Shown in pieces: positions 3,800 through 43,176 of a DNA stretch of 64,000 nt. This DNA is from Patescibacteria group bacterium. GTDB lineage: Bacteria > Patescibacteriota > Patescibacteriia > JACRDY01. The stretch covers positions 80,160-144,159 of the forward strand of contig JBAZFH010000002.1 in the NCBI GenBank assembly GCA_041653535.1, given 5' to 3'. The notes below the pieces were generated by a model. It made no database searches. It worked only from the letters and a program-made list of their open reading frames with translations, and was not told the DNA's origin. The first letter of the stretch is position 1. The number at the start of each line of letters is the position of its first letter. The translations under genes and the position numbers were made by a program.

Positions 3800-4015
3800 A
3801 TTGGTGCATAGATAACGGAAGTTATCTACACATGTATTATACCATATATTTTAAACCACATCAATTTACGCAAGTGTTGTTTTTTGTTTAAGTTTAGATG
3901 AAAAAAAATGTGGATATTTACGTATTTTTTATTTTCTGTTCTTTTTTACTTTAAATTTTAATCAAGATGTTAACAGGATATCCACAAATAATGAAAAAAT
4001 GTGGATAAAGATTGA
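3800..4015. promoter_or_regulatory. cluster of DnaA-box-like 9-mers in a 640-bp AT-rich intergenic region (candidate oriC)
   Basis: tgtggataa (perfect, rc TTATCCACA) at 4003-4011; atatccaca at 3981-3989; tgtggatat at 3909-3916; ttatctaca at 3816-3824; AT-rich tract 4020-4045. Confidence 0.4.
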
Positions 4016-4044
4016 TTTAAAAATTTATTTAATTTTAAATAAAA

Positions 4045-5505
4045 CTATTTTAGACAGCCAGATATACCATAATCGGTCATTTTGAATGCCGAAATACTAA
4101 AAACTTCCCTATATCTAGCCAAAAAATTATTAGCCATGGTTTCTTGGAAGTTAAAAAACATTTGTGGATTAGCAATCTTCTGGCAAAAAGAGGTTAAATT
4201 AATGTTTTTTTCGCCGTTTATTAGCTGTTTAGTGGCGTCGAGCGATGTTGAGAGAATCAAGACGTCATCAATCTGCCCAAAAATAATTTTTAGTTTTGGC
4301 GCCTCTAGGTATTTTAGTTCGTATTTTCCGATTATTTCCGTTTTGGCGTCAAATCTTTTGGGATTAGCTACTAACTCGGTGTATATTGATTTATCCGGTA
4401 GCGACCTTTTTACTTTTTCGGGATACTGGTGGGCGAGGATGTTTTGTAGAATCCTATTAACGGTTTCCAGCGAGTTTTTGTCTTTGTTTTTTATGATAAA
4501 AGTATAAAACAGCTTGTTATCTTCTTTGGTAATAATGATTTGTGTTTGATTGTCCAAATATTTTTCTATTTCCGGAAAAGAAAACCGAAAAGTTTGTTCA
4601 TATGCTTGCCAGGTGCTGAATAGGTCTAAAAATTCTTTTGGTGAAAATTTTTGTAGCTGAACGGAAAAAAGACGGGAAAAATTCAAAAAATTTTCAGCGG
4701 CAATAGAAAAAGTTGTACTTGGCGGCAATTTTTTGGTGATTAGGTTGGCGCCTTTACCAAAATCGATACTTGATTTAATGTTAAAGTTAAAATTTTTATC
4801 TGCCGATATGTAAAAAGCTTTTATGTCGTTGTTTTTGAGGTAGTTTTGTAAAAGGGAAGAAAATATGGGAAAAGAAAGGTTTTTTTGTAATATTTCAGGG
4901 CGTAAAAAAATTTTTAACAAACCACGATCGTAAGCAGATAGCCAGCGATTGTTTTTAACGATCGACTGTTGTCGCTTGATTATGGTCGGGGCAGGAGCAG
5001 AGGTGTCCAGAGGGGCGATCAAATAGCGGCTGCCGGCGAATATTATTGTTTTTTGTCCGGAAATAATATTTTTTATTTCTTTTGGTTTTAGTATTTTGAT
5101 AACAAAATACCAATTATCGTCTTTGTTTAAATAAAGTCCGATTTCCCGGTCAATGTGGTTTTTGACAACAGAGATGTCAAAAGGCGGTAGTCCAGACATT
5201 CTTTCATCAATATCATCAAAAAATATACTGAAAAATTTTTCCGCCGGCGTACCGCTTTGTTCCAGGGGTAAATAGTTAAGATGTATATATATTTGCGCGT
5301 CAGCGGGGACAAATTGCGCTAGGTTGTCACCATTACGATTGCGACTGATAGCTAAAAATAAAATCCCGCTGAATATTATAATGATGGCGAGTAAAAATAA
5401 GATTGTTGCCAGGTGGCGAGGGCGGATGAGTTTGAGTTTTGCGAGTAGACGCTGGATCATGGTTTGATTATAACAAATAACAGGGTAATAGAGTAACGGG
5501 GGCAA
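4045..5505 (-). CDS. membrane-anchored hypothetical protein (N-terminal TM helix; start may be the internal Met at 5460)
   Basis: 486-aa ORF with a single N-terminal hydrophobic helix; no recognised domain. Confidence 0.5.
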   Translation of the reverse strand: MPPLLYYPVICYNQTMIQRLLAKLKLIRPRHLATILFLLAIIIIFSGILFLAISRNRNGDNLAQFVPADAQIYIHLNYLPLEQSGTPAEKFFSIFFDDIDERMSGLPPFDISVVKNHIDREIGLYLNKDDNWYFVIKILKPKEIKNIISGQKTIIFAGSRYLIAPLDTSAPAPTIIKRQQSIVKNNRWLSAYDRGLLKIFLRPEILQKNLSFPIFSSLLQNYLKNNDIKAFYISADKNFNFNIKSSIDFGKGANLITKKLPPSTTFSIAAENFLNFSRLFSVQLQKFSPKEFLDLFSTWQAYEQTFRFSFPEIEKYLDNQTQIIITKEDNKLFYTFIIKNKDKNSLETVNRILQNILAHQYPEKVKRSLPDKSIYTELVANPKRFDAKTEIIGKYELKYLEAPKLKIIFGQIDDVLILSTSLDATKQLINGEKNINLTSFCQKIANPQMFFNFQETMANNFLARYREVFSISAFKMTDYGISGCLK

Positions 5506-6871: not shown

Positions 6872-9139
6872 TTAGAATCTTGGTTTGCGAGGACCACCAC
6901 GATGAGGACCGTTGTTACGACCGTGGTTATTGTCACGCTCTCCGCCAGCCGCGCGTGGATCGTCTTTGTAGTTTGGATCCAGTCGTTTTATCGAGAGATT
7001 AATTCTACCTTGATCGTCAATTTCTTTGACAATTACTTTGACCTTGTCGCCGATATTTACCACATCGGTAACTTTTTCAGTCCGACCGGCTGCTAGCTCG
7101 GAAATATGCACTAGACCGTCTTGCTTTGGTAGGATTTCAACAAAGGCGCCAAAGTCCATTATTCGAACAACAGTACCTTCGTAAACTTCGCCGGCTTGGA
7201 CTTCTTTGACGATATTATTGATCCAATCAACGGCTTGTTTTACTTTTTCCTGATCAATACCTGTTACCATCACTAGACCGGTTTGTTCGATGTCGATTTG
7301 TACGCCAGTGGCGTCAATGATTTCATTAATCACCTTGCCGCCAGGTCCGATAACTTCGCGAATCTTATCAACTTTGATATAAAAGGAAACGATACGTGGA
7401 GCATAAGGTGACATTTCTGCTCGTGGAGTCGGAATTACTCGTTCCATGACATCGAGGATTTTTTCGCGACCGGCTTTGGCGCGAGATAAAGCTTGTTCGA
7501 TAATATCTAGATCAAGACCGTCGGTTTTAGTATCCATCTGGACGGCGGTAATACCGTCGCGAGTGCCGGTAACTTTGAAATCCATACCGCCAGCTCCGTC
7601 TTCTAGATCTTGTAGATCGGTCAGTAGTTTATATTTGCCACTGCCATCGCTAGCTAGACCAATAGCCACACCGGCGACGTGCTTTTTGATCGGCACGCCG
7701 GCGTCCATTAGTGCCAGAGACGATCCGCAGGTTGATCCCATAGAGGACGAACCGTTGGAACTCATAACTTCAGAGACTACGCGAATAGTGTAAGGGAAAT
7801 CTTCCTTGGCCGGTAGGACCGGGATCAAGGCTTTTTCCGCTAAAGCGCCGTGACCAATAGCGCGTCGGCCAACAGAGCCCATGCGGCCAGTTTCGCCATA
7901 GCTATATGGAGCATCGTTGTAATGATGCATGTAGCGTTTTTTGCCGTCTTCTTCCATTGAGTCGAGAGTCTGTTCATCTCCAGGTGAACCAAGAGTCACG
8001 GTAGAAAGGATTTGAGTCTCGCCGCGATTGAACAGCGCTGAGCCGTGAGTGCGCGGGAGCAGACCGACCTCGCAAGCCAGCGGGCGGATTTCATCAAGTT
8101 TACGTCCGTCGACACGTTGGTCGTTTTCCAGTATCGCTTTAGTAATTTGCACTTCGATAAATTTATCAAAATCTTTCAGGACCTTTTTACGGTTCTCTTT
8201 GCTCACTTGCTTTTCTAGCAGCATCGCTTCTACCTTTTCTTTTAACTCATCTAGGACGATATGGCGTTCTCTTTTAGTTCCTTTTGGGGTGTTAAAAAGA
8301 TACTGGTCAAGGTTTTGCAAGATAAAGGTGTGGGTCTCAGCTTCGATTTCTTCATAAGCTTTTTCCGCTTCCACGGCTTCTGTCGGAGTTTCTTCTTCGG
8401 GAAATTCAGCTTCGGCTTTTTCTTCGATTACTTCGGTCATTGAGATTTTTTCCTTACCTACCGCGGCGCGAATTTCTTCTATGAATTCAATTAATTTTTT
8501 GCCGTGTTTCATGCCAAAGGCAACGGCGTTATAAAAGTCAGATTCGCTGATTTCGTTGGCCGCGGCTTCAAACATCATTACTTTTTCTTTGGTCATAGAA
8601 AAAGCGATATCGCAAACGGATTTTTCTCTGGCGGTATAAGTCGGGTTGAGTACCCATTCGCCGTTGATTTGTCCGACACGGATACCTGCTAGCGGTCCGT
8701 TCCATGGGATATTGGAAATGTGCAGGGCAATCGACGCGGCGATCATGCCAACGACATCGGGATCGTTTTCACCATCAACGGAAAGCGCGGTGAGTATCAC
8801 TTGGACTTCATTGCGCAACTGTTCCGGAAAAAGCGGGCGCATACCGCGATCGATCATACGACCGGAGAGTACGGCTTCGTCGGTTGGTCTGCCTTCGCGT
8901 TTGATAAAGCGGCTGCCTTTGATTTTGCCGGCAGCGTACATTTTTTCTTCATAATCAACCATGAGCGGGAAGTAATCTATTCCCTCTCGCGGTTCCGGTG
9001 ACATAACGGCCGTAGCCAAAATAACCGTATCTCCGTATTGGACGGTACAGCTGGCATTGGTGTGTAGGGCTAGTTTCCCTACTTCTACTGTGAGTTTTTG
9101 GCCGGCAAACTCTGTAGAGAAGTTTTTCACTTCTGACAT
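6872..9139 (-). CDS. pnp: polynucleotide phosphorylase (polyribonucleotide nucleotidyltransferase)
   Basis: two RNase PH domains, KH and S1 domains; conserved PNPase motifs; position after rpsO. Confidence 0.95.
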   Translation of the reverse strand: MSEVKNFSTEFAGQKLTVEVGKLALHTNASCTVQYGDTVILATAVMSPEPREGIDYFPLMVDYEEKMYAAGKIKGSRFIKREGRPTDEAVLSGRMIDRGMRPLFPEQLRNEVQVILTALSVDGENDPDVVGMIAASIALHISNIPWNGPLAGIRVGQINGEWVLNPTYTAREKSVCDIAFSMTKEKVMMFEAAANEISESDFYNAVAFGMKHGKKLIEFIEEIRAAVGKEKISMTEVIEEKAEAEFPEEETPTEAVEAEKAYEEIEAETHTFILQNLDQYLFNTPKGTKRERHIVLDELKEKVEAMLLEKQVSKENRKKVLKDFDKFIEVQITKAILENDQRVDGRKLDEIRPLACEVGLLPRTHGSALFNRGETQILSTVTLGSPGDEQTLDSMEEDGKKRYMHHYNDAPYSYGETGRMGSVGRRAIGHGALAEKALIPVLPAKEDFPYTIRVVSEVMSSNGSSSMGSTCGSSLALMDAGVPIKKHVAGVAIGLASDGSGKYKLLTDLQDLEDGAGGMDFKVTGTRDGITAVQMDTKTDGLDLDIIEQALSRAKAGREKILDVMERVIPTPRAEMSPYAPRIVSFYIKVDKIREVIGPGGKVINEIIDATGVQIDIEQTGLVMVTGIDQEKVKQAVDWINNIVKEVQAGEVYEGTVVRIMDFGAFVEILPKQDGLVHISELAAGRTEKVTDVVNIGDKVKVIVKEIDDQGRINLSIKRLDPNYKDDPRAAGGERDNNHGRNNGPHRGGPRKPRF

Positions 9140-11680: not shown

Positions 11681-12316
11681 TTAGGAGCGATCAATAAATT
11701 CTATCTCTTTAGCAATTTCGGCTTTCCATTTTTCCGGCGGGACGTCTTTGCACTTGTCTTTCATGTCGCGGATCAGTTGGAAAAATTTGTCTATCTTTTC
11801 GGCGGCAGCCTCTTTTTTTTCCAAACCGAAAAGGTAGTTGAGCGGTGAGTATAGATTGCCGAACTCTTCAAACTGTCTTGGTGCGGCGGTTTTACCTTTT
11901 ACTATGCCGAGGTTGTTCAGAATCCTTAGCATCTTGGGGCAAAGCTGAGTGGAACAAGTCGGCACGCGAAAAGAGTTTAGGGCACAGCCACTGCGGCGCA
12001 ATGCCGGACAAGGACCGTTACCGGGCAGGCGGCGTTTGCCTACTTCTAGCCAGTTGGAATTTTTTTCGGCCAGTTTTTTACTCCAGCCAGGACCGTTCAT
12101 GGCTTTCTGCGCCCGGTCGATAAAATTCCAATGATCCTGTACTTGGTTATCGAGCAGGCAGCAACACATTTCGTCGCGGTCGATAAAGCGTCCTTCTTTT
12201 ACCATTTCCAGACTTTTATCAAAGCAACGTTTGCATAAATCGTCAAAAACGCGAAAAAAACCGATCAGTTCTTTTTCGGCTTGGCGGTAGATGGTGAGTT
12301 TTTGGCGTTCGTTCAT
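11681..12316 (-). CDS. cysteine-rich hypothetical protein
   Basis: 211-aa ORF with multiple Cys clusters (MCCCLL, PCPALRRSGC, PTCSTQLCP). Confidence 0.45.
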   Translation of the reverse strand: MNERQKLTIYRQAEKELIGFFRVFDDLCKRCFDKSLEMVKEGRFIDRDEMCCCLLDNQVQDHWNFIDRAQKAMNGPGWSKKLAEKNSNWLEVGKRRLPGNGPCPALRRSGCALNSFRVPTCSTQLCPKMLRILNNLGIVKGKTAAPRQFEEFGNLYSPLNYLFGLEKKEAAAEKIDKFFQLIRDMKDKCKDVPPEKWKAEIAKEIEFIDRS

Positions 12317-12413
12317 GTTGTTAGGAGGATAGGATTATTATAGAAGCAGTTGGTTAAAAGTCAAAGGGAGGCTTGCGCCATTTGAGTAAGTGTCGTAAAA
12401 TAAACACATTGTT

Positions 12414-13388
12414 ATGTCGAAAACTGGAAACAACCTAATCACCGATTTTCTCGAGTATCTGGAAATCGAGCGTGGACGATCGCAGGCGACTATCCGCAAC
12501 TATGATTTTTATCTGCGGCGTTTTTTTGATTGGGCGATTAAACGACAGAAGAGTTTTGATGTTAAAGATATTGATTCGCAGGCTATCAGACAGTATCGGT
12601 TGTTTCTTAACCGTGCCGTTGATGACAGAGGAAAGCAGCTTAAAAAAAGCACGCAAAATTATCACCTGATTGCTCTGCGGACGTTTCTCAAATTTCTTGC
12701 TAGAAATGATATCAAATCTTTGTCTCCGGAAAAAATCGAGCTGGCCAAACAGTCCGAACGCCAGATCGAATATTTGGAAGGGAGCGATCTTGGTAAATTT
12801 CTCGAAGCGCCGTTGCAAGTTGATGAGCAAAAAATCATCCAGCTGCGCGACAAATCAATGCTGGAAACGTTGTTTGCCACCGGGCTTCGTGTTTCCGAAT
12901 TAGTTAATCTTAGAAAAGATCAGGTGAATCTGAATAAAGACGAATTCACCGTGCGCGGTAAAGGAGATAAGCTGAGAATAGTTTTTCTTTCCAACCAGGC
13001 CAAATATTGGATTAAACAATATTTGGAAAATCGCAAAGATGCTTCGCCGTTTATGTTTGTCAGTCATGACAGGGCGAGGCAGTCCAGGTCTGGTGTTAGC
13101 GGCACCAAAAAAGATATTTTAGAAGAAGTTGAACATCTGACGCCACGGTCGGTGCAGCGGATAATCAAGAAATATGCTCAGATGGCGGGTATTACCAAAA
13201 AAATCACGCCGCACACTTTGCGTCATAGTTTTGCCACTGATTTATTGACTTCCGGCGCTGATATCCGTTCCGTGCAAAGTTTACTCGGACATTCATCGAT
13301 TACTACTACGCAAGTGTACACTCATATTGCCGATCAGCATCTCAAAGAGGTTTATAAAGCGTTTCATGGAAGGAAGATGAAGAAATGA
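12414..13388 (+). CDS. tyrosine site-specific recombinase (XerC/XerD family)
   Basis: core-binding N-domain; C-terminal RHSFATDLL...GHSSITTTQVYTHI with catalytic R-H-R-Y residues. Confidence 0.85.
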   Translation: MSKTGNNLITDFLEYLEIERGRSQATIRNYDFYLRRFFDWAIKRQKSFDVKDIDSQAIRQYRLFLNRAVDDRGKQLKKSTQNYHLIALRTFLKFLARNDIKSLSPEKIELAKQSERQIEYLEGSDLGKFLEAPLQVDEQKIIQLRDKSMLETLFATGLRVSELVNLRKDQVNLNKDEFTVRGKGDKLRIVFLSNQAKYWIKQYLENRKDASPFMFVSHDRARQSRSGVSGTKKDILEEVEHLTPRSVQRIIKKYAQMAGITKKITPHTLRHSFATDLLTSGADIRSVQSLLGHSSITTTQVYTHIADQHLKEVYKAFHGRKMKK

Positions 13389-13530
13389 GTATATAGTGGT
13401 TAGTATATAGTATATAGGGAGCAAATAGAGTATTTGTGTTTTATGGATATATAATTTTGGTCGTTGACTTTATGGAAAAATCTGCTAAAATATACTAACG
13501 TTATTGAAAAAAATTTGATTATTTGTTATT

Positions 13531-13612
13531 ATGCGCCCGTAGTTTCCTCCTTTGTCCGCTGCGGCGGGCTTCGGCGGACAAGCAATGGATAGATATGTGG
13601 GCGCAATTTCGT
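13531..13612 (+). other. degenerate duplicate of the tRNA-Arg 5' region interrupted by a GC-rich hairpin
   Basis: ttatgcgcccgtagtt + 38-nt GC insert (gtccgc..gcggac hairpin) + caatggatag + tgggcgca; no anticodon or T arm. Confidence 0.5.
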
Positions 13613-13625
13613 TTGTTTCTTTTAT

Positions 13626-13697
13626 GCGCCCGTAGTTCAATGGATAGAACGAGAGCCTTCTAAGCTTTAAATCTAGGTTCGATTCCTAGCGGGCGCG
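13626..13697 (+). tRNA. tRNA-Arg(TCT)
   Basis: cloverleaf folded by eye: acceptor gcgcccg/cgggcgc, anticodon loop cttCTaa, T-loop ttcgatt. Confidence 0.8.
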
Positions 13698-13733
13698 GAG
13701 ATAATTAACAATTATTAATTAGTATTTGAATAT

Positions 13734-13809
13734 GGTGGCTATAGTGTAATGGTTAGCACTCGACTCTGTGGAAGTCGCGGTTCGGGTTCAAATCCCGATA
13801 GCCACCCCA
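13734..13809 (+). tRNA. tRNA-His(GTG) with G-1 and encoded CCA; attL of the integrated island
   Basis: acceptor gtggcta/tagccac, anticodon loop ctGTGga, T-loop ttcaaat; extra 5' G. Confidence 0.8.
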
Positions 13810-15393
13810 CAAGGCACTCTTCTTTACGGAAGAGTGTTTTGTTTTGGAAATTAAGCCAATTTGGACAGGTTCTAAGGTTTTTATTTCTTCCAACCCAGTT
13901 TTTACAATTTCAAAGGGTTTTTGCAGGTTCAAAGATAATTGACGGTCTTTCAAAATAAAACCAGAGCCTAAAGATATTAAGATAGTCTTTTTAGTATCTA
14001 AGTCGCCGTTTTTAAACCAATGACGCGCATAGCAAGAGAATTCAAAAGTCTTCTCAACGTTCTCCCTCCAGTTGTCAGCTCGGCTTTCATAATTTTTTAA
14101 TTGCTCAGCCATTTTTTCCCTCTCTTGCAAAAGTTTATTTTTCCGTTCAGTATATTCGGCATCATTTATTAGTTCACTTATTCTCATTGAAAGCAGGCTG
14201 TCTAATTTCTTTTCTACATTATCGTAAGCTTTTTGTTGGGTGGCTCGGATTATTTCTCTTTCCTTAATCTCACCATCATTAAGATTGTTGAGCCATTTTA
14301 TAGCCCAGTTTTTAAAATCTTCTGGTATTTGTATTTTTTCTAAATAAGCGTCAACTTGTTTTTCGAGCTCTTTTATCTCGAGGGTTTTTTGGCTACACTT
14401 CGGGCAAACATTTTTCCCCTTGCCACAGCGATAGTAGGTGTAATGGTGGGCGTTGCCGTTTTTTTGTTTCTTGAATTTTTCCTCCGCAGTTATCATAGAG
14501 CCACACTCTCCGCAGCGTATAAGCCCCGTAAACGCAAAATTATGCGTTTTAGGGCGTGACTTACCCTTTCTACCCAGTATCTCTTGTACGCGCCAAAAAT
14601 CATCTTCTGTGATGATTGTTTCATGTGCCCCCTTGTACCACTCGCCCCTATATTGGAATTTTCCAAAATAGAATGGGTCAGCCAAAATTCTATAGATAGT
14701 ACTCTCAGCCATTGGTCTGCCACCCTGTCTTTTAGTTTTAGGAGTTAAATATCCCCATTCATTATTCATCTTGTCTAACACTTGAGCGACAGTATATTTT
14801 TGGGTCAGAATCAACTCGAAAGCCTTTTTAATTAATGGCAACCTTGCGGTATCGGGTAGGAGTTTCTTGTCCCCTTGTTCGGAGAGTTTGTCTGGTAAAT
14901 ACCCTGGCTTAGCTCCAGGCAACCACCCCATTTTTACTTTTTGCATCAGCCCCCTAATTGTATTTCGGCGTAAGTCGATAATAAATTGGTTCGCTACCCC
15001 AAACTCCATATTCATAAGAAGCACATTGTCTCCTGGATAGTAGTCTCTCTCGGGAGTTTTAATGTGTTTAATAATACCTTGCTGCAAAAGCCAATTAATT
15101 CTGCCACCATCTATTGGGTTCCTAGCTAGGCGGTCTAATTTCCAACAGATTATACCCTGCGCCTCTCCGTTTTCTATTCTCGTAATCATCTCATTGAAAA
15201 TTGGGCGCCCTGGGCTTTTAGCCGACATGGATTCTTTGAATATATGTATGCTGTTTAAACTAAACTTTTTCGCCGCCTCCTCACTAGTTGAAAGCTGCGC
15301 GGGAATAGATAAGGCTTGCCTGTCTTCCGCGGCTTCAGACTTTCTAGCATAAACGAAGTACTTTATAGTGTCTAAATTTTCCAAATTAGTCAT
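13753..15393 (-). CDS. large serine recombinase (resolvase/invertase N-domain + recombinase domain + zinc ribbon)
   Basis: N-terminal YARKSEAAEDRQALSIPAQ with catalytic Ser; C-terminal CGECGSM...YYRCGKGKNVCPKC zinc ribbon; 3' end overlaps tRNA-His. Confidence 0.85.
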   Translation of the reverse strand: MTNLENLDTIKYFVYARKSEAAEDRQALSIPAQLSTSEEAAKKFSLNSIHIFKESMSAKSPGRPIFNEMITRIENGEAQGIICWKLDRLARNPIDGGRINWLLQQGIIKHIKTPERDYYPGDNVLLMNMEFGVANQFIIDLRRNTIRGLMQKVKMGWLPGAKPGYLPDKLSEQGDKKLLPDTARLPLIKKAFELILTQKYTVAQVLDKMNNEWGYLTPKTKRQGGRPMAESTIYRILADPFYFGKFQYRGEWYKGAHETIITEDDFWRVQEILGRKGKSRPKTHNFAFTGLIRCGECGSMITAEEKFKKQKNGNAHHYTYYRCGKGKNVCPKCSQKTLEIKELEKQVDAYLEKIQIPEDFKNWAIKWLNNLNDGEIKEREIIRATQQKAYDNVEKKLDSLLSMRISELINDAEYTERKNKLLQEREKMAEQLKNYESRADNWRENVEKTFEFSCYARHWFKNGDLDTKKTILISLGSGFILKDRQLSLNLQKPFEIVKTGLEEIKTLEPVQIGLISKTKHSSVKKSALWGGYRDLNPNRDFHRVEC

Positions 15394-32921: not shown

Positions 32922-33325
32922 AAAATATAGTTTGATATATACTATTGTATTCTCTTAGGCGTAAAAAGCAATCAGGTCATAAGCAGGTTGACTTTTTTTG
33001 CTTTTAATCGATTCTATTGTTTAAAGTGCGTTGTGTTTTATTAGCTTAACAAATATGTTTGTTTCGTCAATAATCAGTAAAATATTAAGATATCAAGGTT
33101 TATTTAACTTTTTAAAGATAATAAAAAGGCTAATATTTATTTTTTTGAAAAATCTTATTATTTGGCGGAGATGTATTTTTGCCTACGCCGGAGCAAGCGT
33201 AATGGCGCGGTAAAATGCCGGTATTGAAAACAAAAGAACACCATCTGTATTGCAAAATGATGTTCTCTTTTATTGGCTCCATTCGTTACGACTGAAGCCA
33301 AACTATTATATTTCTCTCTTGTGAA

Positions 33326-33568
33326 TTATATTAGTCTCTTGTTTCTAAAGGTCATACCAGATGCTGTCTTTAGATATTTTTCAAAATCCAAAGCCCGTTT
33401 TTTGTCATCAAAAGCGGAATAATAAAGCATTTTCCACGGCTTAAACTTATTGGTATGAGGAGATTTTCCTTTATTATGATCAGCTAACCTTTCATCAATA
33501 TCTTTTGAAAAGCCAGTGTAAAACTGTTTTGGAAAATTTACGCTCTGGATGATGTAGACGTAAAACAT
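33326..33568 (-). CDS. GIY-YIG nuclease family protein (YhbQ/UPF0213-like)
   Basis: MFYVYIIQS...YTGFSKDIDERLADHN GIY-YIG motifs; ~80 aa. Confidence 0.8.
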   Translation of the reverse strand: MFYVYIIQSVNFPKQFYTGFSKDIDERLADHNKGKSPHTNKFKPWKMLYYSAFDDKKRALDFEKYLKTASGMTFRNKRLI

Positions 33569-33590
33569 TTGATTTGATTATTACCTATTG

Positions 33591-33702
33591 GCCGTGCCAT
33601 CCGTAGCTCGCGACAAGAATAGCAGTGTAAACGTCAACAAAATACAGCCCTCCTTCGCTCTTCGAGCTACGGAGGATATTCTTCGCTCTAGTGAGCGAAG
33701 AA
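33591..33702 (-). repeat. conserved ~110-nt structured element, copy 1 (between tRNA-Ala and the GIY-YIG gene)
   Basis: shares a 27-nt 5' block and a 58-nt 3' block with 34982-35094; internal stems ccgtagctcg/cgagctacgg and ttcgctc/gagcgaa. Confidence 0.5.
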
Positions 33703-33778
33703 TGGTGGACCCTACCGGGCTCGAACCGGTCACCTCTTCCATGCCATGGAAGCGCTCTACCAAATGAGCTAAGGGCCC
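33703..33778 (-). tRNA. tRNA-Ala(GGC), CCA encoded, G3:U70
   Basis: gggcccttagctcatttggtagagcgcttccatGGCatggaag...ggtccacca. Confidence 0.8.
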
Positions 33779-34215
33779 CCACACCAACCTTAAACCGTCG
33801 GTAATTTGTTAAGAATAATGATTTTAACAAAACGACGTTTTAGTACTTTGAATAGTCTAATCAAAGTTGGTTTGGGGGCAAGCCCAAGAATAAATTAAGG
33901 ATAAAAGTTAATCAACGAACCAAATGCTTGTCCGCCGCCTGTCTACGCGAAGTTCGCCGCGGCGAACGAAGGCAGGAAGCCCGAATGTAATGAGGGCGAA
34001 GGTGGAAGCTAATGGCCCAAAACTAAATAAAAAATTAAAAATCAAATATCAAAAATATTGTACGATGACAGTATTTTAGCAAATTGGACGAATAATGCAA
34101 CAAGGTAGTTATAGTATAAGAAAACTGAATTAAAACAGCTTCGGTATTTATTTTAAATATTTTACGACTCTTGATTTTGTTTAATTTTAGATATTATTTA
34201 CCACAACCACCATTT

Positions 34216-34250
34216 ACCATCTACAAATTTGTTTCACGTGAAACATTTTT
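34216..34250. repeat. left terminal repeat containing the perfect 16-bp palindrome TGTTTCACGTGAAACA
   Basis: accatctacaaatttgtttcacgtgaaacattttt; inverted partner at 36388-36422. Confidence 0.55.
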
Positions 34251-34270
34251 TCTTCTTAGCGAATTTGACT

Positions 34271-34303
34271 GGATAAAAAGATGGTAGTAATATATTATTG
34301 TCT
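34271..34303 (+). promoter_or_regulatory. sigma70-like promoter (TTGACT-N17-TAATAT)
   Basis: ttgactggataaaaagatggtagtaatat directly upstream of the structured region. Confidence 0.45.
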
Positions 34304-34446
34304 GAACGGCTAAATTTCCTCGACCATCCTTGAGAGAGAACAGTTTTGAACAAACAGCCAGACCAGGCAGCCAGCATTTTTTTACTGCCGTTCAGACGTC
34401 AGTCAATCAGTCGGGTCTCACATGGGACCCGACTTTTTATTTTTTG
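34297..34446 (+). ncRNA. candidate small RNA (~150 nt) with closing stem and intrinsic terminator
   Basis: closing stem tgtctgaacggc/gccgttcagac; terminator gtcgggtctcacatgggacccgac + T8; promoter upstream; no ORF. Confidence 0.4.
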
Positions 34447-34981
34447 CCACTACCCTTTTTATTGCTAAGGTGGCTTACTCCTTTTTGCCTCAAAAGACAA
34501 GAGGTCTAGGGAAAGGGGAGTAGTGGTAAAATATAAGAAAGTACCATAATTTTTGACAAAATCATCTGAAAAAGATAAAATAATAGCATGATTTATTCGT
34601 CGAGCAGCCATTTTTAATAGCTGCCGCAACCTTTTTGGCAACGTGTATTGGCCACGTTGGACGAATAGATTATTCCGTGAGGGGCATCCGCCTTACCGCG
34701 AAGATGATCGTTTAACGACGGAACGACCATACAAAACGACTACCAAACCTAGCCGGCCAATATAAGCAATGTCTTTTGACGCTCAGCTTTATATACGACT
34801 AGCCAAGAATGTAGTACGTCGTTCACCTACCCAATAGAACGCTTCGGCGTTCTTTTTAATTCCTTACAGGAAACCCCGCATGACCAAAGCGCCCCGAAGC
34901 TGGGCGCGAATGGAGTGCGGTGAGGACGTTGTTTACAACGAAAAACGGGGGTATTCCCCCACTGTCTTTTAAATAATTTTG

Positions 34982-35094
34982 ACCGTGCCATTCGTAGCTT
35001 GCGACAAGGGAAAAGAAATAAGTAACTTATAGCTCTCCTTCGCTCTTCGAGCTACGGAAGACATTCTTCGCTCTAGCGAGCGAAGAATAGTGGG
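34982..35094 (-). repeat. conserved ~110-nt structured element, copy 2 (abutting a tRNA-Val 3' fragment)
   Basis: accgtgccattcgtagcttgcgacaag ... ctccttcgctcttcgagctacggaagacattcttcgctctagcgagcgaagaatagtgg. Confidence 0.5.
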
Positions 35095-35150
35095 CATACG
35101 TGGATTTAAACCACGGACCTCTGTCGTGTGAGGACAGCGTCCCGCCCGCT
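35094..35150 (-). pseudogene. tRNA-Val-like 3' fragment (anticodon arm + T arm + 3' acceptor only)
   Basis: shares acctctgtcgtgtgaggacagcg with the intact tRNA-Val; no 5' acceptor or D arm. Confidence 0.5.
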
Positions 35151-35205
35151 TTGTCTAGCGATAAGTAATAAACTTGTTATATTTTAGAGGCAAAAAATGA
35201 TATTC

Positions 35206-35282
35206 TGGTGGGTTCGACAGGATTTGAACCTGTGACCTCTGTCGTGTGAGGACAGCGCTCTAACCAACTGAGCTACGAACCC
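35206..35282 (-). tRNA. tRNA-Val(CAC), CCA encoded
   Basis: gggttcgtagctcagttggttagagcgctgtcctCACacgacag...cgaacccacca. Confidence 0.8.
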
Positions 35283-35350
35283 TCTAATTAATAGACGAAG
35301 CTAGGCGGGCGGGTATAACCAGCTGAGCTATATGTCCCGCGATAAATAAA
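35283..35350 (-). pseudogene. tRNA 5' fragment (acceptor + D arm, then GC-rich hairpin)
   Basis: gcgggacatatagctcagctggttatacccgcccgc on minus strand; no anticodon or T arm. Confidence 0.4.
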
Positions 35351-35369
35351 AAGTAATTAGACAAGTTAA

Positions 35370-35978
35370 TTATTCTTGTTCCGGGAATTTATCGGGAAAA
35401 AGACTGAAAAAAGATACTTCTCCGGTATTTTTGTTAATTTTAACACCTGGTTTCTCTAATATTTCTGATCTTGGCATATTGATCTGATGACTACTTAAAG
35501 CAACTTTTATACCTGCAGAGATAATATCACCCGCATTAAATAGCCTTATTTGGCAGTCAGAAATTTTTAAGCCGTAACTTTTAAGCCTGTATTTTAGCTG
35601 ATTAATTAAATCTTCAGTAATTCCATTTTCGAGATTTAGCGAAAGATGCAACATTCCGGCTATTTTCCTTTCAGGTTTAGCCAATGTTATAATGGCACAA
35701 GATATTGGCAATGCTTCTAGATAATCGATATTATCTTTTTCTCCAATAATGTCTAAATCGTCGGTAAAAACCTCTCGTGATTTTATTTTCTCAGAAGAAC
35801 AACCAATGTAGTTCTGCTTTTCCGGGTTTTTACCGGTTTTTTCTTGGTATAGCCTATCTGCTTCCAATATCCCCTTTGCCAGACATTCAAAAACAATCTT
35901 TCCGCCGGCGGAGTTGTCCCGATAAATAAATTTTTTTAATTCTTCGGTATGGTTTGCTTTTGGTTCAAATTTTTCCAT
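35370..35978 (-). CDS. hypothetical protein
   Basis: 202-aa ORF inside the tRNA cluster; no family recognised. Confidence 0.4.
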   Translation of the reverse strand: MEKFEPKANHTEELKKFIYRDNSAGGKIVFECLAKGILEADRLYQEKTGKNPEKQNYIGCSSEKIKSREVFTDDLDIIGEKDNIDYLEALPISCAIITLAKPERKIAGMLHLSLNLENGITEDLINQLKYRLKSYGLKISDCQIRLFNAGDIISAGIKVALSSHQINMPRSEILEKPGVKINKNTGEVSFFSLFPDKFPEQE

Positions 35979-35990
35979 AAATTTAGATAT

Positions 35991-36064
35991 TTGGTGGACC
36001 TAGGCAGAATCGAACTGCCGCTTCTACAATGCGAATGTAGTGTCATACCACTAGACCATAGGCC
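35991..36064 (-). tRNA. tRNA-Ala(CGC), CCA encoded, G3:U70
   Basis: gggcctatggtctagtggtatgacactacattCGCattgtag...ctaggtccacca. Confidence 0.7.
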
Positions 36065-36142
36065 CACGGTAAGTAAAAAGTTAAAAGTAAAAAAATACAG
36101 CACTCTCCCCTTTTTACTTTTTAATTTTTACTTTTAAAATTC

Positions 36143-36215
36143 GCCCACGGAGGGAATTGAACCCCCAACCTTTTCCTTAGGACGGAACCGCTCTATCCAT
36201 TGAGCTACGTGGGCA
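36143..36215 (-). tRNA. tRNA-Arg(CCT)
   Basis: gcccacgtagctcaatggatagagcggttccgtCCTaaggaaa...ccgtgggcg. Confidence 0.75.
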
Positions 36216-36221
36216 TAAAAA

Positions 36222-36293
36222 CGTCCCCGAGAGGACTCGAACCTCTGTTACGGGCTTCGGAGGCCAGCGTCTTATCCATTGGACGACGGGGAC
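36222..36293 (-). tRNA. tRNA-Arg(CCG)
   Basis: gtccccgtcgtccaatggataagacgctggcctCCGaagcccg...tctcggggacg. Confidence 0.7.
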
Positions 36294-36387
36294 AAATTAG
36301 TATATGGGTCTTGGTGTTTAGGTCTTAGAGCGAAACATTTGGTATTTGTATTTTTCCTATATACTATATACTAAGACCTCCATACTA

Positions 36388-36422
36388 ATTTTTGTTTCAC
36401 GTGAAACATTTTTGTAGATGGT
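36388..36422. repeat. right terminal repeat containing the TGTTTCACGTGAAACA palindrome
   Basis: aatttttgtttcacgtgaaacatttttgtagatggt; gtagatggt is the reverse complement of accatctac at 34216. Confidence 0.55.
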
Positions 36423-36575
36423 ACGCGATGCTTGGTAGAAATAAACTCTAAAATTAAACTAATTCAAGTGTCGTACAATGTATTACTAAACTTTAGAAAT
36501 TTTTAATTTGCTTTTTGATAAAACTAACAACGGTGGTATAATTCTAGCTGATAATCTACTTAAAATCAATCTTTT

Positions 36576-37652
36576 ATGGAAATAATTCTTGGAATCATAA
36601 TACTCGCGCTTTTATTGGCCATTGGCATAGTTGCCTATTTGTATAGTAAAAAAGGACAAATTACCACACCGCCTGCCGATCAGAACAGTTTATTACTAAT
36701 TCAGAACCAACTCAATGAATTAACTCGGACAATCGATAGTAAAATAGGAGAGTCGTCAAAAATGATGAACCAGTCGGTAATTACTCAGTTTTCCGAGTCG
36801 CAAAAATTGATAAAAGAAATCACCCAAGAGCTTTCTCAAGTAAAAGAAACTGGCAAAAGAGTGGAAGGCTTTGCTGATCAGTTGCAAAGTCTGCAAGATA
36901 TTTTAAAAAATCCAAAGCAGCGCGGAATACTCGGAGAATATTATCTGGAAGCTGTGCTGAAAAATGTTTTGCCGCCGGGCAGCTATCAGATGCAATATAA
37001 GCTTGGTAAAGACGAAGGTGGAAAAGATTTGATTCCCGATGCCGTAGTTTTTGTCAAAGATAAAATCATTCCGGTTGATTCCAAATTTTCTCTAGAGAAT
37101 TATAATCGCATCGTCGAGGAAAAAGATTCGGCAGAAAAATCTCGTCTAGAAAAACTTTTCGTCAACGATCTTAAAGAACGTATTGTCGAGACCGCAAAAT
37201 ATATTCAGCCAAGCAAGGGGACTATGGATTTTGCTTTTATGTTTATTCCGCACGAAGCGATTTATTACGATTTGATTGTAAATAAAATCGGCGCTCTCAA
37301 AGAAGATACGGAAAGTCTGATCCAGCGCGCTGCGTCGAAATATAAAGTAATTATTGTTTCGCCAACATCTTTTTTAGCTTATCTGCAAACGGTTTTGCAG
37401 GGACTGAAAGCCATGCAAATCGAAGAGCAAGCAAAAGATATTGTGAAGCGCGTTGGTGACCTGACAGTGCATCTGAAAAAATATGCAGAAAAATATGACA
37501 AGCTTGGTCGGTCGCTCAGCACGGTAGTAAATCAATACGATGATGGCGCTAGTGAGTTTAAAAAAATAGATAAAGATTTGATTCGTATTAGCCAGACCGA
37601 TGAAGCATTGGGATACGAGCCGTTGAAAATAGATAAACCGAGAGGGGAGTAA
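36576..37652 (+). CDS. rmuC: DNA recombination protein RmuC
   Basis: N-terminal TM, long coiled coil, conserved RmuC C-terminal domain (FAFMFIPHEAIYYD...VIIVSPTSFLAYLQTV). Confidence 0.85.
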   Translation: MEIILGIIILALLLAIGIVAYLYSKKGQITTPPADQNSLLLIQNQLNELTRTIDSKIGESSKMMNQSVITQFSESQKLIKEITQELSQVKETGKRVEGFADQLQSLQDILKNPKQRGILGEYYLEAVLKNVLPPGSYQMQYKLGKDEGGKDLIPDAVVFVKDKIIPVDSKFSLENYNRIVEEKDSAEKSRLEKLFVNDLKERIVETAKYIQPSKGTMDFAFMFIPHEAIYYDLIVNKIGALKEDTESLIQRAASKYKVIIVSPTSFLAYLQTVLQGLKAMQIEEQAKDIVKRVGDLTVHLKKYAEKYDKLGRSLSTVVNQYDDGASEFKKIDKDLIRISQTDEALGYEPLKIDKPRGE

Positions 37653-39687: not shown

Positions 39688-39690
39688 AAA

Positions 39691-39730
39691 ATTGGTAGTT
39701 GGTAGATGGTAGCTAGGGACTAGATTAGTC
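39691..39730. repeat. low-complexity GGTAG tract abutting the holA start codon
   Basis: aattggtagttggtagatggtagctagggactagattag. Confidence 0.5.
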
Positions 39731-42591: not shown

Positions 42592-42597
42592 AAATAT

Positions 42598-42636
42598 GAT
42601 GGTAGGAGGCTAGGATAATAGGAGGCTAGGATTAGT
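42598..42636. repeat. low-complexity GGTAGGAGGCTAGG tract abutting the polA start codon
   Basis: ggtaggaggctaggataataggaggctaggattag. Confidence 0.5.
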
Positions 42637-42712
42637 TGTTGGAACGACACGCCCTCTGGGCGTGTTATCGTGCACGATGCTTTAAACGTAAGGCATGAAA
42701 TATGTAACATGA

Positions 42713-42763
42713 AACAATCTTAAATAAACTTTCGTTTCGTGTTTCATGTTATGTGTCTTATTT
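42713..42763. promoter_or_regulatory. 12-bp perfect inverted repeat (TAACATGAAACA ... TGTTTCATGTTA) upstream of polA; related to the TGTTTCACGTGAAACA palindrome
   Basis: taacatgaaaca at 42713-42724 and tgtttcatgtta at 42752-42763. Confidence 0.35.
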
Positions 42764-42832
42764 TACCATTTATTGCTGAATAAAAAAACCGTTAGAAAAC
42801 TGACGGTTTTTGGGAGACCATGACCGGATTTT

Positions 42833-42882
42833 CTCCCTTCGGGAGATGTCCCCTCCAGAGGCGGGCAAGCCGCAGGGACAGA
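42833..42882 (+). repeat. ~50-nt structured direct repeat, copy A (flanks tRNA-Cys)
   Basis: tctcccttcgggagatgtcccctccagaggcgggcaagccgcagggaca; the copy at 43019-43068 is identical. Confidence 0.6.
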
Positions 42883-43018: not shown

Positions 43019-43068
43019 TTGTCTCCCTTCGGGAGATGTCCCCTCCAGAGGCGGGCAAGCCGCAGGGA
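43019..43068 (+). repeat. ~50-nt structured direct repeat, copy B
   Basis: identical to 42833-42882. Confidence 0.6.
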
Positions 43069-43176
43069 CACAGACCCTTGCCTTATCCGCCGCGGCGGAC
43101 GACGTGACCGAACAAAAACAGTTTAACAAAAATATATTTAAAAATCAATGTTTTTCTAAAATATTTTGTATAAAGA

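Follow-up and report, generated by a model that had tools for sequence, protein, structure and literature searches.

The 16-bp perfect palindrome TGTTTCACGTGAAACA occurs at two places in a 64-kb stretch of the genome of a Patescibacteria group bacterium (GenBank assembly GCA_041653535.1, contig JBAZFH010000002.1, positions 80,160 to 144,159; this whole stretch is referred to as the window, and all coordinates are given within it). Both copies, at 34230-34245 and 36393-36408 and spaced 2.16 kb apart, are very probably canonical chromosomal parS sites, the centromere-like loading sites for ParB in the ParABS partition system. The repeated palindrome had been pointed out in a preliminary description of this DNA and is confirmed here by exact matching, together with its inverted 9-nt outer flanks, ACCATCTAC at 34216 and GTAGATGGT at 36414. 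The further suggestion of a dimeric operator used twice was right in kind, as a site of a dimeric DNA-binding protein that is present in two copies, but the agreement with the parS consensus at all 16 positions makes this a ParB/parS site and not the operator of a transcription factor. The element is thus of an already known kind and its biology is ordinary.

The sites are called canonical parS because each matches the consensus shared by B. subtilis and C. glutamicum, TGTTNCACGTGAAACA, at 16 of 16 positions and because their 16 bases are the same as those of the parS of Hyphomonas neptunium, which is exactly TGTTTCACGTGAAACA (PMC7022226, Table 1 and text). parS is a highly conserved palindrome found in varying number per genome on most bacterial chromosomes, mainly in the ori domain, and several sites usually occur together (PMC7022226), as do the two sites of the window and the sites of its relatives described below. 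Among the matches listed for literature containing GTTTCACGTGAAAC, almost all, in the portions displayed, deal with ParB, parS, Noc or replication origins, and every abstract of a GTTTCACGTGAAAC-bearing paper that was shown in full concerns ParB/parS. The Noc-binding site (NBS) of Firmicutes is comparable in being a 16-bp palindrome for a helix-turn-helix dimer of the ParB family that uses cytidine triphosphate (CTP), as far as the abstracts describe it, but the window site fits parS and not NBS. The NBS has a different sequence, with a ATTTCCCGGGAAAT core, and Noc is a ParB paralogue known only from Firmicutes.

Within the window the palindrome is confined to these two positions, with no further copy at up to two mismatches (expected count 0.01), and two matches were reached in none of 100 dinucleotide-preserving shuffles. 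Matches with three mismatches number 7 against 6.4 expected, which is the level of chance. Each palindrome forms the inner end of a longer arm, and the two arms make up an inverted repeat (34159-34245 and 36393-36479) that was recovered by a repeat finder and by alignment, measures 87 nt and has 80% identity. The 35-nt repeat of the preliminary description is therefore real but was under-described. A perfect 23-nt direct repeat (34228-34250 and 36391-36413) is also present and is perfect because the palindromic core is self-complementary.

Conservation in relatives extends beyond chance. The comparison set comprised 80 RmuC loci from other Patescibacteria species, 1.19 Mb in total, with RmuC protein identities of at most 79%. 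These loci hold one exact site, four sites with one mismatch and two with two mismatches, whereas 200 controls, palindromes assembled from half-sites in permuted form, averaged 0, 0.025 and 0.43, respectively, that is, seven sites with up to two mismatches against about 0.45. The variants found in the relatives, TGTTACACGTGAAACA and TGTTCCACGTGAAACA, are changed at position 5, a known degenerate position of parS. All of the parS-like sites are confined to three loci (L031, L043 and L077), where two or three of them lie within 0.4-0.6 kb at a distance of 1.3-6.7 kb upstream of rmuC, and none of the remaining 77 loci has one. The same three loci are the only ones of the 80 in which tRNA-Ala(cgc) and tRNA-Arg(cct) stand directly upstream of rmuC in the manner of the window. 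On the strength of these comparisons, the parS neighbourhood is kept across distant Patescibacteria. When 33000-37000 was compared by blastn with the 80 loci, only the tRNAs and rmuC matched, with no other non-coding DNA in common.

Further copies were met outside this set. RmuC and the 202-aa protein encoded between the two sites gave no hit in exact look-ups. Look-ups with the S20, GIY-YIG and DUF3307 proteins returned fragments of the same species only (L206-L210), three of which (L206, L207 and L210) duplicate the window, with L210 adding 725 nt to its left, and two of which (L208 and L209) cover the left site, where the palindrome and its arm are identical to those of the window. The exact 16-mer is also present in at least 120 viral contigs, several of which carry 3-5 copies. 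Five phage contigs from IMG/VR (L086, L100, L101, L103 and L141), which encode a portal protein, a phi29-like capsid and a Gp16 packaging ATPase, display arrays of 3-5 perfect host-type parS between small genes; a ParB gene was not detected on these contig fragments by tBLASTN with B. subtilis Spo0J, and phages with such arrays may make use of the host partition machinery. In L077, two of the parS-like sites form an inverted pair 11 nt apart with 35-nt arms, and a GC-rich, foreign-looking open reading frame (ORF) of 83 aa lies between parS-like sites of this locus (8065-8646).

The genomic context offers two features that are consistent with parS. SMC is the complex loaded by ParB-parS in other bacteria, and the window encodes an SMC_N-family ATPase with a GPNGSGKSN motif 23 kb from the sites, a protein of the family expected of such a client; Pfam reports no hinge domain in its 757 aa, which leaves its assignment as a true SMC incomplete. 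A cluster of DnaA-box-like 9-mers lies in and beside an AT-rich intergenic stretch 30 kb from the sites, and five or more boxes within 350 bp were found in none of 1000 block shuffles. This cluster is a candidate oriC, and its position suggests that the parS sites are near the origin; neither dnaA nor dnaN was found in the 64-kb window. Compared with chromosomal parS elsewhere, the two sites share the 16-bp palindrome itself, the presence of more than one copy close together, an intergenic or near-genic placing, an SMC-family gene in the genome, syntenic conservation in relatives and variability of position 5 among these relatives. They differ in that each carries about 71 nt of inverted flank homology, which is undescribed for parS, and in their host, a metagenome-assembled genome of Patescibacteria (Parcubacteria-type) with no ParB within 64 kb.

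Identity and conservation of the sites suggest that the organism encodes a ParB that would occupy both of them. Using its helix-turn-helix domains, a ParB dimer would nucleate on the 16-bp site, as described for parS generally (PMC7022226, and abstracts as far as displayed), then close as a CTP-dependent clamp and slide or spread onto the flanking DNA. A partition complex would in this way be built near the origin and SMC loaded, and ParA, where present, would move the complex. Both sites are intergenic and have promoters beside them, which bound ParB might incidentally damp, an effect that would be a by-product and not the function of the sites; damping of local promoters by ParB is reported for P. 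aeruginosa and S. pneumoniae in the abstracts available.

Several observations weigh against the assignment to parS. A motif scan found no gene for ParB or ParA in the window, which covers 64 kb of a 323-kb contig, Pfam or NCBIfam searches of about 43 window ORFs (Pfam covering all but three) recognised neither protein, and tblastn of the window with B. subtilis Spo0J, a query confirmed to be 100% identical to the database entry, revealed no ParB. Spo0J and Soj likewise gave no tblastn match in the window or in any of the loci; a database search with Spo0J returned Bacillus proteins only and is uninformative for this phylum. No description of ParB/parS in Patescibacteria was found in the literature searched. 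The closest RmuC relatives, L001 and L002, are without parS beside rmuC, and the tRNA synteny is missing there as well. The GC skew does not change sign within the window, so that proximity to the origin is suggested and goes no further. The flanks pose a separate difficulty: the ParB dimer recognises the 16-bp palindrome via its helix-turn-helix domains, and because it needs this 16-mer only, the ParB model leaves the roughly 71 nt of kept flank unexplained.

These flanking arms are clearly related to one another. They agree at 54 of the 71 positions beyond the palindrome (binomial p about 3e-15); the homology extends away from the palindrome on its outer side and does not continue past it on the inner side. 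Mismatches are unevenly spread, with one 15-nt block almost unrelated and the blocks TACCATCTACAAA, GTTTAATTTTAGA and TACGACnCTTGA kept, a pattern that could reflect constraint but is seen in two sequences only. There is no third copy of an arm in the window or in approximately 200 other loci, and the repeats around parS in relatives are just 18-22 nt long. No convincing sigma-70 promoter is present in the arms in either direction, the promoter scan calling none, and Rfam (gathering and E-value thresholds) has no match for the palindromes or the arms. The simplest reading is that one site with its flank arose from the other by local inverted duplication. In L031, L043 and L077 every parS is separated from rmuC by tRNA-Ala, which makes the left site probably the ancestral one; the right site, located between tRNA-Arg(ccg) and rmuC, would then be the derived copy.

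A more elaborate version of this duplication, put forward tentatively and rather unlikely, holds that the copied unit is a module of about 90-105 bp, composed of parS and an arm with TACCATCTACAAA, GTTTAATTTTAGA and TACGACnCTTGA that would be a second functional element, for instance a site bound by a further protein, or a promoter with its leader that faces inward. Local inverted duplication of whole modules would give rise to additional centromere sites in these small genomes, and here the two modules would enclose the tRNA operon in a loop bridged by ParB. More remote is the idea that another protein reads the sites, for example a catalytically degenerate LAGLIDADG dimer like the one encoded between parS copies in L031 and L043, a thought that persists because the window shows no ParB gene.

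Readings that dispense with partition have to account for the same facts. An operator for an ordinary dimeric transcription factor other than ParB, co-regulating the candidate small RNA, the tRNA operon and the rmuC promoters (Table 1), would agree with the intergenic position of both sites beside promoter-like hexamers and with the lack of a visible ParB gene in the window; the left site ends 19 nt before the -35-like TTGACT, and in L077 a parS is similarly followed by TTGACT after 18 nt. Such an operator is nevertheless very unlikely given a sequence that is the exact parS consensus, the absence of looser matches from other promoters across the window, in which three-mismatch matches do not exceed chance, and the placing of one copy directly after a stop codon in L031 and L043, which is not an operator position. 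CRP/FNR-, LacI- and LexA-type operators were considered and dropped on the identity to parS. In the other proposal of the preliminary description, the repeats would be the termini of a composite mobile segment. Broadened to a mobile or invertible stretch of 2.2 kb on which a transposase or site-specific invertase acts, this reading draws on the resemblance to DNA invertase switches and insertion-sequence ends, where two inverted copies likewise surround a segment of about 2 kb, and on the long inverted repeat, between whose arms lie an orphan gene, fragments of tRNA-Val and unassigned GC-rich sequence. The window does contain a tyrosine recombinase (12414-13388) and a large serine recombinase (13753-15393), but these are some 20 kb away, and no recombinase or transposase is recognised inside or adjoining the segment, whose 202-aa ORF has no family match. 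The order of tRNA-Ala(cgc), tRNA-Arg(cct) and rmuC is kept in three other species (L031, L043 and L077), and these tRNAs are therefore neighbours of rmuC and not mobile cargo. By eye, no direct repeat that might be a target-site duplication lies outside 34159 and 36479, and the left junction is unchanged in same-species contigs. The best-conserved part of each repeat is moreover its inner end, which is parS itself, with homology extending outward and not inward, and the core is a self-complementary protein-binding site known in another role. Mobility or inversion of the segment is accordingly unsupported and highly improbable.

A role of the palindrome in RNA, as the hairpin of an intrinsic terminator or processing site, might be read from the run of 5-6 T that follows both copies on the + strand. 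The hairpin would be weak, however, at -4.7 to -5.7 kcal/mol with six pairs of which only two are G-C, the terminator scan does not call it, and a hairpin would not need exact conservation of loop and stem from AT-rich Patescibacteria to GC-rich phages, all of which makes this account barely plausible. No more credible is a target for a homodimeric LAGLIDADG homing endonuclease, with the paired copies marking past insertions. This idea comes from L031 and L043, in which two parS exactly enclose a gene of the LAGLIDADG family with a single motif (PF00961, E 3e-8), and from the homologues of this gene in L203 and L204, which keep decayed parS copies on both sides. Both acidic LAGLIDADG residues are replaced (ISGLISTGG and VAGLVNKCG), making nuclease activity unlikely, and insertion by homing would split the site and not duplicate it; the loci with the gene appear orthologous and thus represent one event, and the window retains no trace of the gene. 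The LAGLIDADG gene was set aside as an explanation for the window on these grounds and for the small size of its family. In the Magasanikbacteria-type genomes that carry it, the gene encodes 121-125 aa (6012-6418 in L031 and 3310-3720 in L043), and of its two bracketing sites one parS lies in the 5' leader and the other starts 1-2 nt past the stop codon.

A related inverted pair had also been described upstream of polA. The pair exists, with TAACATGAAACA at 42704-42715 and TGTTTCATGTTA at 42740-42751, but it is unrelated to the parS sites, with which it has only a common heptamer at chance frequency: TGAAACA occurs 5 times in the window against 4.8 expected from base composition, and TGTTTCA 8 times against 7.2. 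The half-sites of the pair are everted, with 24 nt between them. The TGTTTCA and TGAAACA of this pair overlap by 6-7 bases with the half-parS heptamers bound by P. aeruginosa ParB (GTTCCAC/GTTTCAC), but the polA copies read TGTTTCAT, not TGTTTCAC, quite apart from their everted spacing and frequency. The polA-upstream pair is a separate hairpin-forming inverted repeat.

Table 1. Coordinates of the two putative parS sites, their arms and associated features in the 64-kb window (aa, amino acids; MFE, minimum free energy).
Feature	Position	Strand	Basis
Left putative parS, TGTTTCACGTGAAACA	34230-34245	.	Exact; 16/16 to TGTTNCACGTGAAACA
Right putative parS, TGTTTCACGTGAAACA	36393-36408	.	Exact; 16/16 to TGTTNCACGTGAAACA
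Left arm, outer flank of left parS	34159-34229	+	54/71 vs reverse complement of 36409-36479
Right arm, outer flank of right parS	36409-36479	-	Repeat finder, alignment
Promoter-like TTGACT-17-TAATAT	34265-34293	+	Promoter scan
Candidate structured small RNA	about 34300-34445	+	MFE -50.6 kcal/mol, z -5.65
Intrinsic terminator of candidate small RNA	34409-34434	+	Terminator scan
Conserved tRNA cluster between sites	35206-36294	-	tRNA-Ala(cgc)/tRNA-Arg(cct)-rmuC order shared with L031, L043, L077
tRNA-Val(cac)	35206-35282	-	
202-aa orphan ORF	35370-35978	-	No family match
tRNA-Ala(cgc)	35992-36065	-	
tRNA-Arg(cct)	36141-36215	-	
tRNA-Arg(ccg)	36221-36294	-	
rmuC, syntenic anchor gene beside right parS	36576-37652	+	Pfam PF02646, E 1.7e-54
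SMC-family ATPase, 757 aa	59456-61729	-	Pfam SMC_N, E 1.4e-64, residues 9-742
DnaA-box-like cluster, five 9-mers, one perfect TTATCCACA	3822-4171	.	Five or more boxes within 350 bp in 0 of 1000 block shuffles

The segment between the sites (Table 1) holds the tRNAs, the tRNA-Val fragments and the 202-aa ORF just as previously described. Measured from the right parS, tRNA-Arg(ccg) begins 99 nt downstream on the - strand, and the rmuC ATG is reached after 168 nt on the + strand. Beside the left parS, the candidate small RNA possesses an 11-bp closing stem and a strong terminator and has no family in Rfam. In L208 and L209 this RNA is rearranged, with ATTTCCTC now on the opposite side of GAGAGAGAA, its partner. 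The GC-rich stretch 34260-35090 also has no Rfam match at gathering or E-value thresholds.

The 202-aa ORF belongs to no family in Pfam, NCBIfam, PHROGs or PADLOC, and its AlphaFold model has a predicted local distance difference test score (pLDDT) of 51, too low for a fold search, and is confident for the N-terminal module only. The protein resembles a fusion of two modules: the N-terminal module, about 65 aa long (YRDNSAGG...FEC...TGKNPEKQ), recurs in other proteins, among them a Fic-family protein that begins with it, and the C-terminal module stands alone in proteins of 147-156 aa. Next to it is a nested arrangement of tRNA-Val sequences on the - strand (35091-35340), in which a 5' fragment (about 35337-35314) and a 3' fragment (35147-35091) enclose a stretch of about 175 nt that is closed by a 14-bp helix (CCCGCCCGCCTAGC / GCTAG..GCGGGCGGG) and holds the intact tRNA-Val(cac) at 35206-35282. 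Joining the fragments in silico, with these approximately 175 nt removed, yields a complete tRNA-Val(cac), a result for which ARAGORN accepts nearly any junction, and the fold of the region has a z of -3.9. The nested tRNA-Val could be an old gene that was disrupted; alternatively, the D arm and the anticodon stem could be parted at their junction by an insertion or intron of an unusual kind.

GC-rich repeats of about 60-120 nt directly flank tRNA genes in the window. One pair (33588-33708 and 34979-35093, about 90% identity) adjoins the 3' sides of tRNA-Ala(ggc) and the outer tRNA-Val, and another (42820-42880 and 43020-43075) lies on either side of tRNA-Cys; neither has an Rfam match, and assemblies from other samples break at the first GC-rich repeat. 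The leaders immediately before the start codons of polA (42592-42640), holA (39688-39730) and the ORF at 11681-12316 (12317-12345), all on the - strand, are C-rich and G-poor and contain CCTCC or ACCA repeats that are anti-Shine-Dalgarno-like and not Shine-Dalgarno-like. The arms of the parS sites, read inward, have a similar flavour (ACCACAACCACCATTTACCATCTAC) to these leaders. In a more distant part of the window, tRNA-Arg(tct) and tRNA-His (13625-13809) stand between the two recombinases, a tyrosine recombinase of the XerC/D-like type at 12414-13388 and a large serine recombinase of 546 aa at 13753-15393. The serine recombinase ORF overlaps tRNA-His, which is encoded on the opposite strand, and the region 12414-15393 may be an element integrated at a tRNA.

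With the assignment to parS a false lead is removed, in that neither a new regulator nor a new mobile element is present here. The oddity that remains is a second site copied and kept together with about 71 nt of flank, which raises a small question of how parS sites multiply. Recognition of parS marks the partition-complex, or centromere, region of the chromosome of an uncultivated member of the Patescibacteria, and in combination with the DnaA-box cluster at a distance of 30 kb it offers a practical starting point for finding the origin domain and for annotation of genomes of this kind.

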